From IMG/VR virus record IMGVR_UViG_2617270944_000006: a stretch of 43,730 nucleotides of DNA; one strand, given 5' to 3'. The notes below the pieces were generated by a model. That model was not told the origin of the DNA. It was given only the letters and a program-made list of their open reading frames with translations, and searched no databases. The stretch's first letter is position 1, and every line of letters begins with the position of its first letter. The stretch comes from a virus (lineage: Duplodnaviria; Heunggongvirae; Uroviricota; Caudoviricetes). A program made the translations under genes and the position numbers. Below, piece after piece: positions 23,956 to 38,980 of this stretch.

Positions 23956-24226
23956 AATGTTACCGTAATATGTGAGTATCCATCGACTAGACACTAAGCA
24001 AAAAAGCTCCCGAAGGAGCCTTCATTTTCACTTTCTTAAATCTAACGACAGACGGCTAACATTTAAGTATTGTGAAATATTATCAAATGTAATCATCATT
24101 GATTTACAAAAGATACATTTTGCCCCGAAAGGATTCCTGTCAGAAACATCAAAAGATGATGTTCTATACTGAGAACCATGGCAACACGGGCATCTAAAGT
24201 GAATATGGTTTGTAATATTTTCTACC

Positions 24227-24439
24227 TCAAAGTGCCACAACATGAACAGCCGCGGGGCCTTTAGGTCCGTTCTCAATACCAAATTCGACTTCCTGATTCT
24301 CAGTTAACGTTTTGAAATCGTTGCTCTGAATAGCTGAGAAATGGACAAACACATCTTTGCTACCATCTTTCGGCGTGATGAAACCAAAACCTTTTTCAGG
24401 GTTAAACCATTTCACTAAACCAGTCATTTTGTTAGACAT
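24227..24439 (-). CDS. cspI: Cold-shock protein, CspA family (CspI-like, 70 aa)
   Basis: [34 protein letters not shown] cold-shock domain with RNP motifs; adjacent to Rz as cspI is in Qin. Confidence 0.8.
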
Positions 24440-24802
24440 CATTATTACCTTTTGAAGAAGTTAGCCCTTGGGCAGAATGGTCCGAAAAAAAATATCAGAG
24501 AGAAAAACCAACAAGGAAATCTCAAGAGGTACAAATAATAAAATTATAACAATGACTGCTTCAGATAATTTTGTAACAAACCAGAACACCATTAACGCAT
24601 GATTAACCAACCATAGCAAGGATTACTTTTGTAAAGAAAAACACACGAATGAAACAATATCTTTATTTATTAATAAAACGTGTCATTCTGTCTAATGACC
24701 TTTTATCTTACCCTTAAGATTTCAAGGATTTTGACTCATGGAAGAGTCCTTTTTATTTAAATTTCACATTCAGCGCTAAAAATAATCCGATTTAATATTA
24801 AT

Positions 24803-25830
<1,028 letters not shown>

Positions 25831-25957
25831 GGATATTTATCAGGATTTATCAGTTTCTAATCTCTAGATATGTTAAGCACTCAGCCCGTCAGTGGTGGAT
25901 ACTGGCGTGTGTAATAAAGGGGGGATGGCTGATTACCTCTGATAAGGGAATGTAACT

Positions 25958-26167
25958 ATGAACGGTATAGATCCATTCAAACCAATCAGTAAGCAACTTG
26001 ATGTGGTATTACCACAACTGACAAAACACAACGACCTTCTGGATAAAGTGTTGCCTTTTTATATTGCTGTTACCGCAAAATTATCAGGTAAAACTCGAGA
26101 AGAGGTTCTCAAATATAACATGCTGGCTTTAGAAACAATTTTTGGCTCAGAAAAAGCGGGAAAATAA
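25958..26167 (+). CDS. Hypothetical 69-aa protein encoded antisense to the lysis cassette, between R and ydfR-like
   Basis: ORF with AAGGGAA 7 nt upstream of ATG; followed about 95 nt downstream by a plus-strand rho-independent terminator. Confidence 0.45.
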   Translation: MNGIDPFKPISKQLDVVLPQLTKHNDLLDKVLPFYIAVTAKLSGKTREEVLKYNMLALETIFGSEKAGK

Positions 26168-26258
26168 CCCAAAGAGCTGGCAGAATCTCAATTTGCTTAT
26201 ATGACAAATATAAGAGTATCCGAAATCTTTGATAAGCTACCAGACATTGAATAATTTC

Positions 26259-26290
26259 TAAGCGGCAGTAATGCCGCTTTATATTTTTTC
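26259..26290 (+). terminator. Rho-independent terminator (hairpin agcggca-gtaa-tgccgct followed by a T-tract)
   Basis: GC stem directly followed by tttatattttttc on the plus strand; overlaps the stop codon of the ydfR-like gene. Confidence 0.6.
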
Positions 26291-26501: not shown

Positions 26502-26717
26502 TTACTCTCCTCTCGCAGCCTTACGCCTGTCTTCTTTAATCTTGAAATAAAGGTTTGTCAGATACGTCAGCATGCCAAATACCAGACTACCCAATACACC
26601 TATTGCCGCCCACTGTGAGGGTGTGACTTTATCGAGCAACTGTAAAAACCAGTAGCCAGCACTGCCTGCAGAGGTGCTGTAGGCGATGCCCGTTGTTAAC
26701 TTATCCATGGATTTCAT
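26502..26717 (-). CDS. Holin, S21/EssD-like class II (pinholin-type), 71 aa
   Basis: [71 protein letters not shown]: two TM segments plus charged C-terminus; GGAGGTG RBS. Confidence 0.85.
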
Positions 26718-26805
26718 AGCCTCACCTCCGCAGATAACGGATGGTGTACACGGTTTGGTTCGAAGAAGGAAAGAAGTTACATTAGCGTAAGGCCCGAACA
26801 TCTAT

Positions 26806-26839
26806 TCAAAAAGAAAAACGCCAGCAATTATTCTGGCGT
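26806..26839 (-). terminator. Rho-independent terminator downstream of the AraC-family gene, upstream of the holin
   Basis: Minus-strand hairpin acgccag-aataattg-ctggcgt followed by tttttctttttg. Confidence 0.6.
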
Positions 26840-26907
26840 AGCTAAAAATATCGTATAATCTTACACTTCAAAAAATAACTTTATAAAATGCCATCACATC
26901 ATATCTT

Positions 26908-27630
26908 CTAAGAAAATCTTGATAAATATTGGTGCGGAGGCACACCAAAATATCTTCTAAAAACACTTACAAAATATGATGCATTGTCATACCCGCATAT
27001 TCCCGCCACCTTGCCGACAGTATGGTTACTGTAGATCAATAATCTTTGCGCCATCATCATTCGTTCTTCAAGAATTAATTTACTAAACGATAATCCTTCG
27101 TCTTTTAATTTTCTTTTTAACAAACTCTCGCTCATATATAATCTTGAAGATATATCACAAAGTCTCCATGACGCTGAGATATCCGAGTGAATAATAGCCT
27201 TAACTTTACAACCTAAGCTATTAAGACTTCCGAACAAAAAACTTTGCACTATTTTCTCTGAAGATAAGACAGCAAGACATGCAAGTGATATTTGATTTCT
27301 AACTACATCCACGGTTTTGCTATCACAATTCAAGCATGCAACCAAGTTCTTTAACAATGAAAAATCTTCACATTCTACTATCAAGTATGACGGATAAAAC
27401 CTTCTTACAGAAAAAGGTGAGAGTGTGTAGTTTTTAAAGAAATCATTAACTGTTTTCTCCTCAACATCTACGATCATTAGATGATCTGTATTTGACGAAA
27501 AAAGATCTTTTAAATTGTATTCAATGAGGACAGCATTTCCTTTTTTAAACAAAATATCTTCTTTACCAATTCGGACACCAAACGAGTTCAACACCAAAAT
27601 GATAGAACATATGTATGGCATATTATCCAC
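26908..27630 (-). CDS. AraC/XylS-family transcriptional regulator (AppY-like architecture), AT-rich cargo gene
   Basis: 240 aa; C-terminal dual-HTH AraC signature (LLIYSNHTVGKVAGICGYDNASYFVSVFRRYFGVPPHQY); strongly AT-rich coding sequence. Confidence 0.75.
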   Translation of the reverse strand: MDNMPYICSIILVLNSFGVRIGKEDILFKKGNAVLIEYNLKDLFSSNTDHLMIVDVEEKTVNDFFKNYTLSPFSVRRFYPSYLIVECEDFSLLKNLVACLNCDSKTVDVVRNQISLACLAVLSSEKIVQSFLFGSLNSLGCKVKAIIHSDISASWRLCDISSRLYMSESLLKRKLKDEGLSFSKLILEERMMMAQRLLIYSNHTVGKVAGICGYDNASYFVSVFRRYFGVPPHQYLSRFS

Positions 27631-28027
27631 CTGATATCATTGGGGTTACACCAGGTAAGTATAGGTGGAAAATCAATATTCGCCAGTTCAACAATAAGGA
27701 AAATCTCATTGCATCACAACTATAAAACCATGTGTTTAACTCACAAAAAACAAATCATTAAACTAATCTGTTATATTATAATAGCTGCGTGCAATAATAA
27801 TATTATATGCTCTTAATATTCACTTGAAATATCTTCATATAAAAACAGATTGAATAAAATCGTTTGGGGCTGGTATGTTTACCAACATTAAATTGCATCT
27901 CAATGTTTTCTTTAGCGTGAACAGGATTTTTATAAAAACTGACACTATGAGCATCATAGCGTAGTTTTTACGATTGTAAATATCCTGCATACAGGAACTC
28001 ATCACTTTCAGATGATATCGCATACAG

Positions 28028-28987
28028 TTAATTCACCATCAGTCTTAGAGCCAGTTCTTCCGGATAGGGATCGAAGTAATTCTGTGTAAGCAAGTAATCA
28101 TTAGGATACTCACCCAGATAATGCTTCAGCAGAGTCAACGGCGCAAGAAGAGGCAATGTGCCAAAGCGATAGTTAAGTATAACCTCGCTCAACTCTTTAC
28201 GCTGGCGTGTACTTAAGTAATTACTAAAATACCCCTGTATATGCATCAGCACATTCGTGTGATTTTTACGTGATGCTGGTTTTCTGAGAATCGCCATCAG
28301 ATTATCACGATACACCTCAAAGTATGATTCAAGGTCCGCCCACTCGTGTATTGCAGCCACAAATGGTCCCATATCTTTATAGCCTGCCTGGCTATGCGCC
28401 AACAACTGAAGCTTATAACGACTATGAAAAGCTAATAACTCTCTTCTTGATAATTTCTCCTTGTAAAGGTGATTGAGCTCATGCAAAGCAAAAACTCTTT
28501 CAATAAAATTCTCACGAAGCACTGGATCATGTAATCGCCCATCCTCTTCAACCGGTAGCCAGGAAAACTTTTCCATCAAAGTGCTCGTAAATAGTCCCAC
28601 TCCATCTTTACGACCTCGATTACCATTTTCATCATAGACACGCACGCGCTCCATGCCACAGCTGGGAGATTTAGCACAAACCACAAACCCCGATACATCC
28701 TTTAATTTGTCCATATAAGAACGACTAAACTCTGTCATTCTCTCTGTCACATCCTCATTCTGGTCGTGGCTGAAACACATCCGTATATTTCCTTGCTTCG
28801 AGCGCACAAGTCGTAGAGCAGGACGCGGAACTGGCAGCCCTATAGCCATTTCCGGACATACTGGTCTGAATGTTACCCATTCCACTAATTTGTCCATTAA
28901 AAAGTCATCTCTTTTGTGACCACCATCAAAACGAACAGCAGAACCGCCCAAACAACCGCTGATCCCAATCACAGGTTTTTTTATCAT
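28028..28987 (-). CDS. DUF523 (TudS-like, putative 4Fe-4S thiouracil desulfidase) fused to DUF1722 (YbgA-like)
   Basis: 319 aa; N-terminus MIKKPVIGISGCLGG..RFDGGHKRD..CPE..GLPVPRP is the DUF523 pattern with candidate cluster cysteines; C-terminal half resembles YbgA/DUF1722. Confidence 0.6.
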   Translation of the reverse strand: MIKKPVIGISGCLGGSAVRFDGGHKRDDFLMDKLVEWVTFRPVCPEMAIGLPVPRPALRLVRSKQGNIRMCFSHDQNEDVTERMTEFSRSYMDKLKDVSGFVVCAKSPSCGMERVRVYDENGNRGRKDGVGLFTSTLMEKFSWLPVEEDGRLHDPVLRENFIERVFALHELNHLYKEKLSRRELLAFHSRYKLQLLAHSQAGYKDMGPFVAAIHEWADLESYFEVYRDNLMAILRKPASRKNHTNVLMHIQGYFSNYLSTRQRKELSEVILNYRFGTLPLLAPLTLLKHYLGEYPNDYLLTQNYFDPYPEELALRLMVN

Positions 28988-29179
28988 ATTCTCCCCCTTG
29001 ACTAATTCATTAACACATAAACTGTGTAGTGCACGGAATAAATTGCCTTTCTGGCGTCATCACTGACAATTTTTCTGTTATGGACTATTCCTAATATAGT
29101 ATGAAAGTTCTTTAAGTGATCGGTCGTACTCATCTATCTTTCATACTTACTCTCAACTATCAAAAGTACAGGATTTATT

Positions 29180-29704
29180 ATGAAGTTATGGCCTGTGTTG
29201 ACTGGCATTGCACTCTCTTTCACTCTTATAGCATGTAAGGCCCCGACACCACCTAAAGGTGTGCAGCCGATTACAAATTTTGACGCCAACCGCTACCTCG
29301 GAAAATGGTATGAAATAGCTCGCCTCGAGAACTGGTTCGAACGTGGTCTGGAACAGGTCAGCGCTACTTATGAAAAACGGAACGACGGAGGGATTCGCGT
29401 ACTTAACCGTGGATACGATCCAACGAAAAACAAATGGAGCGAGAGCGAAGGTAAAGCATACTTTACTGGAGATACTAAAACTGCAGCGTTGAAAGTTTCG
29501 TTTTTTGGCCCCTTCTATGGTGGCTATAATGTAATCAAGCTGGATGATGAGTATAAGTATGCTCTTGTCAGTGGTCCGAACAGAGAATACCTATGGATTC
29601 TGGCAAGGACCCAAACTATTCCAGATAATGTAAAAGTAGACTATGTGCGTACCGCTCAAAAGTTGGGATTCAATGTCAATGAACTATTATGGGTTAAACA
29701 ATAA
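29180..29704 (+). CDS. Lipocalin family outer-membrane lipoprotein (Blc-like)
   Basis: 174 aa; lipoprotein signal (LIAC); motifs NFD..RYLG.WYEIAR, FERGLE, SEGKAYFTG, AALKVSFFGPFYGGYNVI, YLWIL.RT match E. coli Blc as recalled. Confidence 0.85.
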   Translation: MKLWPVLTGIALSFTLIACKAPTPPKGVQPITNFDANRYLGKWYEIARLENWFERGLEQVSATYEKRNDGGIRVLNRGYDPTKNKWSESEGKAYFTGDTKTAALKVSFFGPFYGGYNVIKLDDEYKYALVSGPNREYLWILARTQTIPDNVKVDYVRTAQKLGFNVNELLWVKQ

Positions 29705-29730
29705 AATCCCCACCCGAAATGATACTTATT

Positions 29731-29761
29731 AGAAAAAAACCAGCCTTTGGGGAGGCTGGCT
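29731..29761 (-). terminator. Rho-independent terminator on the minus strand between IS5 and the blc-like gene (tR'-like candidate)
   Basis: Minus-strand hairpin gccagcc-tccccaaa-ggctggt followed by ttttttt. Confidence 0.55.
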
Positions 29762-29825
29762 AAATCAGGAAACAAGCTGTTATATGATAATAACTACGTT
29801 GCGATTCCAACATTTAAAATGTTAG

Positions 29826-31020
<1,195 letters not shown>

Positions 31021-31058
31021 TTAGACTAATGAAAATCAGACAGCAACTTTTCCTTTAA

Positions 31059-31451
31059 TTATTTCGAACAATCAGCATCCATCTCCAATCGGAGATCCAA
31101 CACCATCAGCATGCCCTCCACTACGCCCTCAGCTTTCTGGAGCATCCTGCCAACCCAACAATCAGATCGCCCATGCTTACGTGCAAGCGCCATAAAAGTC
31201 ATGCCGCCGACATAATAGTCCACCAATAAATCATGTAAATCGCTGTTGTTTTTTTTCAGGCGAGCCATACATTCACAAATGATCATCGCGTCATCGTCAC
31301 AGCATTGCGGACGAGATCTTACTTTTGAAGGAATTAATCCCTTAAAACCGGCGGCAATGGACGACCAGGTCACATCTTCATGATTATTAGCCGCCCATGC
31401 CCCCCAACGCTCAAGAACCATCTGAATATCACGCATCAACTTACTCCACAA
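31059..31451 (-). CDS. Late-gene antiterminator Q (QuuD-like, about 130 aa)
   Basis: Small Cys-containing protein ([13 protein letters not shown]) upstream of the lysis region and downstream of ydfU-like, the Q position in lambdoid phages; size matches the short Q family. Confidence 0.65.
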
Positions 31452-33317: not shown

Positions 33318-33473
33318 TTACTCCTCAGGTTCGTAAGCTGTGAAGACAGCGACCTCCGTCTGGCCGGTTCGGATTCGTACCTCGCAGAGGTCTTTCCTCG
33401 TTACCAGTGCCGTCACTATGACGGTTAAACAGATGACGATCAGGGCGATTAACATCGCCTTTTGCTGCTTCAT
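33318..33473 (-). CDS. hokD: Hok/Gef family small membrane toxin (type I toxin-antitoxin), 51 aa
   Basis: MKQQKAMLIALIVICLTVIVTALVTRKDLCEVRIRTGQTEVAVFTAYEPEE matches HokD as recalled; the in-frame upstream extension gives a 70-aa ORF (33318-33530). Confidence 0.85.
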   Translation of the reverse strand: MKQQKAMLIALIVICLTVIVTALVTRKDLCEVRIRTGQTEVAVFTAYEPEE

Positions 33474-33730
33474 AGCCTGCTTCTCCTTGCCTTTCGGCAC
33501 GTAAGAGGCTAACCTACATGTGTCTAGCATGAAATTGGCCTCAGATTAATGTTAAGCGTCTTGCAGGACGCGTAATGTTAACTGGGGCTTTTCTCTACCT
33601 GCCGTTGGTGTTCGTGCCCGAGGCAGATAGCCTCAAGCACCCGCAGTCATTCTACTTAACTAAGATTTCCCCGCAAACCGTTTTGTCCAGCACAGTAAAT
33701 ATCCAACTAAACCAATGGAGTTCGCTGTAT

Positions 33731-38922: not shown

Positions 38923-38980
38923 TTTCTGGTGACGTTTGGCGGTATCAGTTTTACTCCGTGACTGCTCTGCCGCCCTTTTT
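38923..38980 (+). ncRNA. dicF: DicF small regulatory RNA (Hfq-dependent sRNA that represses ftsZ), including its terminator hairpin
   Basis: Sequence tttctggtgacgtttggcggtatcagttttactccgtgactgctctgccgccc followed by ttttt matches DicF as I recall it; located between ydfC and dicB. Confidence 0.85.

Follow-up and report, generated by a model that had tools for sequence, protein, structure and literature searches.

A widespread Q-to-holin moron cassette of lambdoid coliphages with genes for a lipocalin, a RudS-type protein and a PatE-like regulator

Genes and features of the locus

We were interested in a group of genes located between the Q antiterminator and the holin gene in IMG/VR record IMGVR_UViG_2617270944_000006 (Caudoviricetes), a stretch of 43,730 nucleotides that is referred to as the window. 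The whole window is a single contiguous lambdoid prophage on the minus strand, with tail fibres, head genes, terminase, lysis genes, Q, ydfU, hokD/sok, replication genes, the DicF immunity region and integrase. A previous reading of the sequence alone had placed three cargo genes at 26802-29825, and the open reading frames (ORFs) as well as Pfam and NCBIfam profile matches agree with its domain calls. The three verified ORFs encode an AraC-type regulator, a DUF523 plus DUF1722 protein and a Blc-subfamily lipocalin, and they are bounded by an S21-type holin and by Q. The domain assignments are correct, and all three genes indeed fall outside the core phage functions. From Q to the holin gene the features are as follows.

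31059..31451 (likely start 31436), minus strand: Q antiterminator, Pfam Phage_antitermQ (PF06530) with 171 bits; upstream edge of the late-region cargo site
29826..31020, minus strand: complete insertion sequence IS5, 1195 bp, assigned from its DDE_Tnp_1 and DUF772 transposase, its terminal repeats and alignment with IS-free copies
29822-29825 and 31021-31024: 4-bp target duplication TTAG of IS5, located in the sequence
29762..29825, minus strand: rest of the 155-bp spacer between the Q stop and the lipocalin stop; presumed pR' promoter (a predicted site) and pause region
29738..29761, no strand assigned: strong hairpin with a T-run on the minus and an A-run on the plus strand; terminator scan, 9-bp stem, 5 GC pairs, T7 tail
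29180..29704, plus strand: Blc-subfamily lipocalin lipoprotein, 174 amino acids, Lipocalin_2 with 145.9 bits; opposed to the late operon
28988..29179, no strand assigned: divergent intergenic region between lipocalin and RudS, 192 bp, presumably holding both promoters
28028..28987, minus strand: RudS-type TudS/DUF523 plus DUF1722 protein, 319 amino acids, Pfam 137 and 136 bits; codirectional with late transcription
27622..28027, minus strand: AT-rich spacer ahead of the AraC gene, in which a promoter scan picked out promoter-like sites at 27980-27953 and 27746-27719
26908..27621, minus strand: PatE-like AraC/XylS-family regulator, 237 amino acids, 33% GC, Pfam HTH_18 with 63.8 bits
26818..26839, minus strand: terminator-like hairpin between the AraC stop and the holin start; terminator scan, 7-bp stem, 5 GC pairs, T-run
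26502..26717 (ORF to 26801), minus strand: S21-type class II holin, essD/essQ-like, with dual start MKSM, Pfam Phage_holin_2_1 with 116 bits; downstream edge of the cargo site

The end of the interval at 29825 coincides exactly with the edge of IS5, an element that the sequence-only reading had left unmentioned. Q is 86% identical to QuuD of K-12 and a distant relative of Q21 (PDB 6p18, E 5e-9), and the counterpart of the holin in the E. coli locus L001 carries the annotation essD. The GC content is about 32-37% across the AraC part, compared with 50-60% in the structural genes; by gene it amounts to 33% for AraC and 43-44% for lipocalin and RudS. Families of all three cargo proteins are labelled function unknown in PHROGs, and PADLOC gave no anti-phage defence match for the AraC, RudS or lipocalin protein. 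Within the cassette there were no Rfam gathering matches (the cspA thermoregulator, sok and DicF all lie elsewhere in the window) and no tRNA was detected by ARAGORN. The proposal that the Q-to-holin (Q-to-S) interval is a moron site holds, with nmpC in DLP12 and cspB/cspF in Qin of K-12 found at the same position downstream of Q, although with different gene content. The stx cargo of Stx phages occupies the same Q-to-S site.

Distribution and integrity of the cassette

The prevalence of the cassette was determined by megablast of the 3-kb interval against 5426 complete E. coli genomes. It was matched in 1154 of them (about 21%), with nearly all matches being chromosomal, and the match spanned at least 80% of the interval in 884 of these 1154 genomes. 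Most matches with a coverage of about 63% reflect a more divergent AraC allele, as present in strain M12 and in phage 1H12. The three genes constitute a very common lambdoid Q-to-S moron cassette.

Whether the genes travel together had been set beforehand as a check, and the same order was found in related prophages, isolated phages and viral contigs. Three E. coli chromosomes with differing prophage backbones (one Qin-like with ydfU, two lambda/DLP12-like with rusA, ylcG and nin genes) showed the order Q, lipocalin on the opposite strand, RudS, AraC and holin, and so did 1H12 and the Lambda_ev series (infant gut) as well as IdasGreatGrand, isolated phages with genomes of 46-48 kb. In an IMG/VR sample the cassette was present in 80 of 80 viral contigs, with a constant gene order wherever the contig extends, while the upstream module differs between contigs (with ydfU, with a ydfU-like gene at 57% identity, or with rusA) and the flanking lysozyme is of the RrrQ or RrrD type. 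From the constant order beside varying flanks, Q, cassette and holin can be regarded as one recombining module, and in every copy the cassette and its flanking Q (96-99% identical) and holin (85-100%) co-vary.

The lipocalin ORF is intact in 78 and the RudS ORF in 79 of the 80 viral contigs. For the AraC ORF this number decreases to 65, with ten copies truncated (one of them by IS5), two truly absent and three cut by contig ends. The ratio of nonsynonymous to synonymous divergence (dN/dS) between alleles was 0.10-0.24 for AraC, RudS and lipocalin alike, and all three genes are, judged by this ratio, under purifying selection. The occurrence of the same block in 1154 of 5426 genomes and in every viral contig of the sample, together with these ratios, shows that the arrangement is not due to chance.

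The RudS-type protein

The product of the middle gene matched PF04463 (2-thiour_desulf, DUF523; 137 bits) over residues 7-149 and PF08349 (DUF1722; 136 bits) over residues 192-309. This architecture corresponds to RudS, a TudS desulfidase joined to DUF1722 that removes 4-thiouridine (s4U) from tRNA, with the DUF1722 domain assigned to tRNA binding (Jamontas et al., NAR 2024; PMC11417400). One of the six proteins tested in that study was RudS_vir of Escherichia phage 1H12 (gp66), and the RudS of the window is 92% identical to it, both proteins having 319 amino acids with 26 differences. The window allele is 97% identical to that of IdasGreatGrand and likewise to the chromosomal allele of E. coli strain RIVM_C037166. 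Ligands of the [4Fe-4S] cluster, C12, C44 and C110, are invariant in the four alleles compared, and their positions are the same as those reported for RudS_vir and RudS_ST (PMC11417400). By their spacing from the cysteines (C+2, C+11, C-3 and C-1) and not by direct alignment, E46, R55, S107 and S109 correspond to E51, R60, S111 and S113 of RudS_KT, mutation of which abolishes activity (PMC11417400). RudS_vir shares with the window protein the two domains, the length, the ligands and the catalytic Glu, Arg, Ser and Ser, and its gene lies in the same Q-lipocalin-RudS-AraC-holin cassette. Therefore, from domains, ligands and identity, the middle gene is predicted to encode a RudS-type tRNA 4-thiouridine desulfidase, with the activity known for the 92%-identical RudS_vir.

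Overexpression of RudS_vir in E. coli reduced the s4U content of tRNA, albeit to a lesser extent than with other orthologues and despite good expression; of the tested RudS proteins, RudS_vir had the shortest lag on 4-thiouracil, and none of them supported growth on thiouracil comparable to TudS (PMC11417400). The suggestion that the desulfidase could act on tRNA is thus confirmed for this close homologue. RudS_KT shortened the growth delay induced by near-ultraviolet light (near-UV, UVA) from about 105 to about 60 minutes (PMC11417400). Bacterial RudS genes adjoin light-responsive MerR/LitR regulators or a photolyase gene (PMC11417400), and no such regulator lies close to the phage copy. The same study stated that E. 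coli lacks RudS (PMC11417400), which is true of K-12 and untrue of the roughly one-fifth of strains that match the cassette.

In the B-strain derivative E. coli Rosetta2(DE3) (NZ_CP083274.1, 101-1085) the match is limited to the lipocalin end of the cassette, and the gene beside the lipocalin is annotated as '2-thiouracil desulfurase family protein', suggesting that rudS is truncated in strains of the BL21 type. The published UVA experiment had been carried out in BL21(DE3). A further database protein from E. coli (P0030, 403 amino acids), which covers 92% of the query at 98% identity to RudS, carries an additional GGDEF domain (PF00990) and is probably a fusion by rearrangement or an assembly or annotation artefact.

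The lipocalin and its linkage to RudS

The lipocalin matched PF08212 (Lipocalin_2) with 145.9 bits and the NCBIfam Blc subfamily NF007786 with 311 bits (cutoff 267). Its N-terminus, MKLWPVLTGIALSFTLIAC, shows a lipobox LIAC with Cys18 and a lysine at +2, as read from the translation. Compared with the E. coli Blc (b4149, beside ampC), it belongs to the same NCBIfam subfamily and has the same length and a lipoprotein signal with lipobox cysteine, but the two are just 59% identical, and the phage lipocalin is a paralogue that groups with chromosomal lipocalins linked to RudS, to which it is 75-80% identical. Proteome data of a clinical strain include a 97%-identical allele (WP_000780581), which increased two- to three-fold with meropenem and was classed among the outer-membrane proteins. 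In addition, blc has been reported as a moron carried by over half of 19 lambda phages from the gut (PMC6969025).

Chromosomal RudS loci were collected with one genome per species, which led to 62 loci, all in Enterobacterales and with 66-76% identity to the phage protein. In 43 of them a lipocalin gene lies upstream on the opposite strand, within 2.5 kb in all but one, encoding a protein 68-80% identical to the phage lipocalin. The order lipocalin, MlrA-like MerR regulator, transthyretin-like gene, RudS was observed at 36 loci (Enterobacter, Leclercia and relatives), and some genomes have just one of these two middle genes. In Citrobacter sedlakii and Citrobacter sp. JGM124 no gene separates the divergent lipocalin and RudS, as in the phage; C. 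sedlakii has 188 bp between them, compared with 192 bp in the phage. Relative to the cluster of Enterobacter, Leclercia and C. sedlakii, the phage shows the same divergent orientation, with 75-80% identity for the lipocalin and 66-76% for RudS, but it has an unrelated AraC gene instead of the MerR and transthyretin-like genes. The RudS of E. cloacae had already been reported with its MerR neighbour, from which its authors proposed light-inducible expression, and the lipocalin was not mentioned (PMC11417400).

Taken together, lipocalin and RudS were probably captured jointly, and without the MerR regulator, from an enterobacterial chromosome. As the best chromosomal RudS match is 76% identical, the donor would lie outside the sample. 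The best 120 matches listed for RudS all came from Enterobacterales with at least 69% identity, offering no distant homologues for a wider check of the linkage. The intergenic DNA between the two genes showed essentially no conservation with its chromosomal counterparts. A perfect 10-nt inverted repeat at 29098-29147 was considered as an operator and rejected; since it is neither kept nor compensated in phage 1H12, it was treated as a chance occurrence.

The gene between the MlrA-like regulator and RudS, conserved at the 36 chromosomal loci, encodes a transthyretin/HIUase-family protein (136 amino acids; locus L027, 5488-5898). The chromosomal scan also returned two E. coli prophage fragments from a metagenome-assembled genome of 'Candidatus Nanosynbacter sp.' (D148_maxbin.008), the short contigs L058 and L063, which carry the cassette from Q through lipocalin, RudS and AraC to the holin with 92-97% protein identity. 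Their presence in this member of the Saccharibacteria is almost certainly due to binning contamination.

The AraC-type regulator

The AraC ORF extends over 26908-27630 on the minus strand, and the likely start, the ATG at 27621, which matches that of the homologues, leads to a protein of 237 amino acids. HTH_18 was matched at residues 161-237 with 63.8 bits (cutoff 33.6), and phrog_1450 with 328 bits. The best NCBIfam match, to the YdeO equivalog NF007407, was full-length with 113.8 bits and below the cutoff of 348, so that the regulator is, judged by its profile score, a relative of YdeO and not YdeO itself. Compared along its entire length, it shares 48% identity with PatE (Sakai ECs_0287, Z0321), 28% with YdeO, 30% with AppY and 26% with EnvY. 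With PatE it aligns end to end, including shared N-terminal motifs and the C-terminal AraC double helix-turn-helix.

PatE and PsrB activate gadE and hdeA and repress LEE (locus of enterocyte effacement) genes, and AppY is a further prophage regulator of this clade. The window regulator is likewise prophage-borne, about 240 amino acids long and AT-rich; among these prophage regulators, the direct comparison covered PatE and AppY. PatE and its close relatives are placed after tail-fibre genes, whereas the AraC gene of the window lies between Q and S. Salmonella orf242, from Salmonella pathogenicity island 2 (SPI-2), was considered as an orthologue of the 240-amino-acid regulator and discarded, as the RudS neighbours in Salmonella and E. 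cloacae belong to the MerR family (PMC11417400) and the Enterobacter one is an MlrA-like MerR protein.

The AraC gene was absent from all 62 chromosomal RudS loci, and all named matches in the search for its homologues were from E. coli. Synonymous divergence (dS) between alleles was 0.33-0.59 for AraC, compared with 0.04-0.29 for lipocalin and RudS. Together with the GC content of 33% and the similarity to PatE, these observations point to a separate origin, and the AraC gene would be a separate addition to the cassette and the part that is most often broken. A frameshifted or truncated allele of 195 amino acids (P0012) stands for 623 database sequences and was found in strain RIVM_C037166 (locus L002, 12105-12829) and in six of the 80 viral contigs. 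Such a widespread allele indicates that the regulator is dispensable in at least one successful lineage.

Late transcription signals and IS5

The 155-bp spacer downstream of Q is conserved among the copies aligned, and the hairpin at 29738-29761 is kept in all of them. This hairpin is likely to have two roles, as tR' for a short transcript from pR' and in ending transcription of the lipocalin gene, which runs towards it. A candidate pR' consists of -35 TTGCTG, 17 nt and -10 TAACAT. Of two candidates in the spacer, this best one is split by IS5, and IS5 sits within about 15 bp of the alternative. A second hairpin, at the other end, also resembles a terminator, so the cassette is flanked on both sides, and promoter-like sites were detected by the scan ahead of the AraC gene.

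With DLP12 the spacer shares a ATATAACAG motif, the spacers being otherwise different. DLP12 resembles the window further in its 86%-identical Q and in a hairpin followed by a reverse-oriented outer-membrane gene, nmpC, which has also been hit by IS5. In Stx phages, the stx cargo lies downstream of Q and is read from pR' by Q-modified polymerase.

IS5 is a secondary insertion, missing from the remaining copies that were aligned or annotated, among them L001, L002 and L004. Located in or beside the presumed pR', it may take the cassette and the late genes of the window copy out of the control of Q, and late transcription may be impaired. The IMG/VR viral contig L092 carries an IS5 at the corresponding place upstream of the lipocalin.

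Other features of the prophage

Downstream of the lysis genes, the region of a cspI-like gene forms a second cargo region of the prophage. There, Rfam detected a cspA thermoregulator 5' untranslated region (109.8 bits) at 24181-24597 on the minus strand, ahead of the cspI-like cold-shock gene at 24227-24442. The sok antitoxin RNA of the hokD/sok module (33468-33642, minus strand) and the DicF small RNA (38924-38975, plus strand) mark a Qin-like early and immunity region. Between lysozyme and a DUF1327 (ydfR-like) gene, the interval 25831-26278 exceeds its counterpart in strain VCSW8 by about 360 bp and contains an ORF of 69 amino acids (25958-26167, plus strand) without Pfam match. The distance from holin to lysozyme varies across viral contigs (about 530, 590, 890 and 1090 bp), which marks another variable spot.

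Origin and possible function of the cassette

From the distribution, the chromosomal linkage and the separate history of the AraC gene, we consider it likely that a three-gene moron cassette has become fixed in the Q-to-holin module of lambdoid coliphages as a composite of two acquisitions. The first would have been the divergent lipocalin-RudS pair, taken from an enterobacterial cluster of lipocalin, MlrA-like MerR regulator, transthyretin-like gene and RudS with loss of the regulator, and the second the low-GC PatE-like AraC regulator, added downstream. The cassette is built of known families, and nothing points to a new kind of system.

Several observations weigh against this composite origin or against a common function. 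About 16% of the viral copies have either lost the AraC gene or carry it in truncated or interrupted form, and from this frequent loss and the 195-amino-acid allele the three genes do not form an obligate unit. The linkage of lipocalin and RudS is confined to one enterobacterial group, being missing in Pectobacterium, Dickeya, Klebsiella oxytoca and most Citrobacter, and may reflect shared descent only. Furthermore, the position of pR' is a prediction from promoter-like motifs, the promoter scan of the 192-bp intergenic region gave no convincing sigma-70 match for rudS or lipocalin, and expression in lysogens is documented for the lipocalin only. The RudS_vir data stem from overexpression, with a weaker tRNA activity, and not from a native prophage.

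The function of the gene products can be pictured as follows. RudS, an iron-sulfur desulfidase, would convert 4-thiouridine at tRNA position 8 to uridine, as expected from its 92%-identical homologue, and might thereby dampen the s4U-dependent near-UV response, in which tRNA cross-linking leads to uncharged tRNA, guanosine tetraphosphate (ppGpp) and growth delay. The lipocalin may act as a Blc-type outer-membrane lipoprotein that binds lipids under envelope stress, and the AraC regulator could target AT-rich, H-NS-silenced promoters of the host, as PatE, PsrB and AppY do at acid-resistance genes. Located just downstream of the presumed pR'/tR', each gene of the cassette would depend on its own promoter in the lysogen. 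After induction, Q-modified polymerase would pass antisense through the lipocalin gene, sense through rudS and AraC, and past the hairpin at 26839-26818 into the holin gene, a read-through corresponding to an stx-like wiring. From the location shared with the Stx toxins, prophage induction should strongly affect expression of the cassette. For its biological role, which we infer from these families and this position, a protection of the lysogen from UVA growth delay, a contribution to late protein synthesis or induction in sunlight, or no common role at all could be considered.

That the genes have no role in common is a serious alternative, which we rate just short of probable. Independent morons would then have piled up at a permissive hot spot and hitch-hiked with the module of Q, pR' and holin. 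The co-variation of Q and holin with the cassette in every copy, the unrelated cargo at the same site in DLP12 and Qin, and the AraC gene with its different GC content and history and its frequent loss would all be expected in this case, as would the absence of PADLOC matches and the PHROG families without known function. It does not explain, however, why lipocalin and RudS are neighbours in many chromosomes too, with variable genes in between, nor the purifying selection on all three genes and the intact lipocalin and RudS ORFs in nearly every viral contig. RudS might instead serve the lytic cycle, as a Q-dependent late product that strips s4U from host tRNA so that near-UV in sunlight can neither halt translation nor trigger the stringent response during synthesis of the late proteins, and might permit SOS and prophage induction by near-UV. 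The s4U-dependent growth delay reportedly suppresses near-UV SOS induction. The codirectionality of rudS with late transcription downstream of the presumed pR'/tR', and the shortened UVA growth delay upon RudS overexpression, are consistent with such a function, but a late erasure of s4U would leave existing cross-links in place. In addition, the gene is intact in many seemingly defective prophages, including the IS5-carrying copy of the window, which fits better with a benefit for the lysogen, and we consider a lytic role unlikely.

Very unlikely in our view is a main role of the enzyme in the salvage or detoxification of free thiolated bases or nucleotides such as 4-thiouracil and 4-thio-UMP, as for stand-alone TudS, with no editing of tRNA. 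The short lag of RudS_vir on 4-thiouracil and its comparatively weak tRNA desulfidation could be read in this way (PMC11417400). Nevertheless, RudS_vir still reduced tRNA s4U, no RudS supported growth on thiouracil as TudS does (PMC11417400), and the DUF1722 domain assigned to tRNA binding has been retained. The sequence-only reading had named, as the case that would refute it, ordinary chromosomal genes trapped between two prophage remnants. RudS and lipocalin homologues are indeed chromosomal in other Enterobacteriaceae, yet these are merely 66-80% identical, whereas the Q-to-S interval of prophages and of the isolated 46-48 kb phage genomes holds copies that are 90% or more identical in DNA, and the prophage of the window continues without a break from the tail fibres as far as the integrase. 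With the cassette inside isolated phage genomes, this case can be excluded, and we regard it as extremely improbable also for the window.

Further claims of the sequence-only reading need to be restricted. The novelty it had implied does not hold, as the central enzyme of the cassette had already been cloned from 1H12 and tested (PMC11417400), blc is a known lambda moron (PMC6969025), and the prophage AraC regulators PatE, PsrA/B and AppY are a described class. Nor was anything found to show joint action of the three genes as a system. No paper was found in the literature that treats the three-gene combination or the question why a phage carries RudS. What is added here is the probable shared ancestry of lipocalin and RudS, the observation that the AraC gene has an origin of its own and often decays, the figure for prevalence and the IS5 insertion.

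The strongest form of a joint function would be an epitranscriptomic eraser in the late operon, by which loss of the near-UV sensor s4U from host tRNA disables the light-triggered translation arrest and stringent response, so that sunlight could induce the prophage and the lytic programme could run to its end. With the co-captured lipocalin guarding the envelope against photo-oxidised lipids, the cassette would then be a mobile sunlight-response module. We regard this as unlikely; if true, about one in five E. coli strains would gain the module by lysogeny. Irrespective of that, with about 21% of complete E. coli genomes matching the cassette, the s4U content of tRNA and the UVA physiology may vary among strains by lysogeny. 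The cassette offers a tractable natural system to address why a virus erases a tRNA modification of its host, and the neighbourhood of lipocalin and RudS is a lead on the poorly understood bacterial lipocalins.

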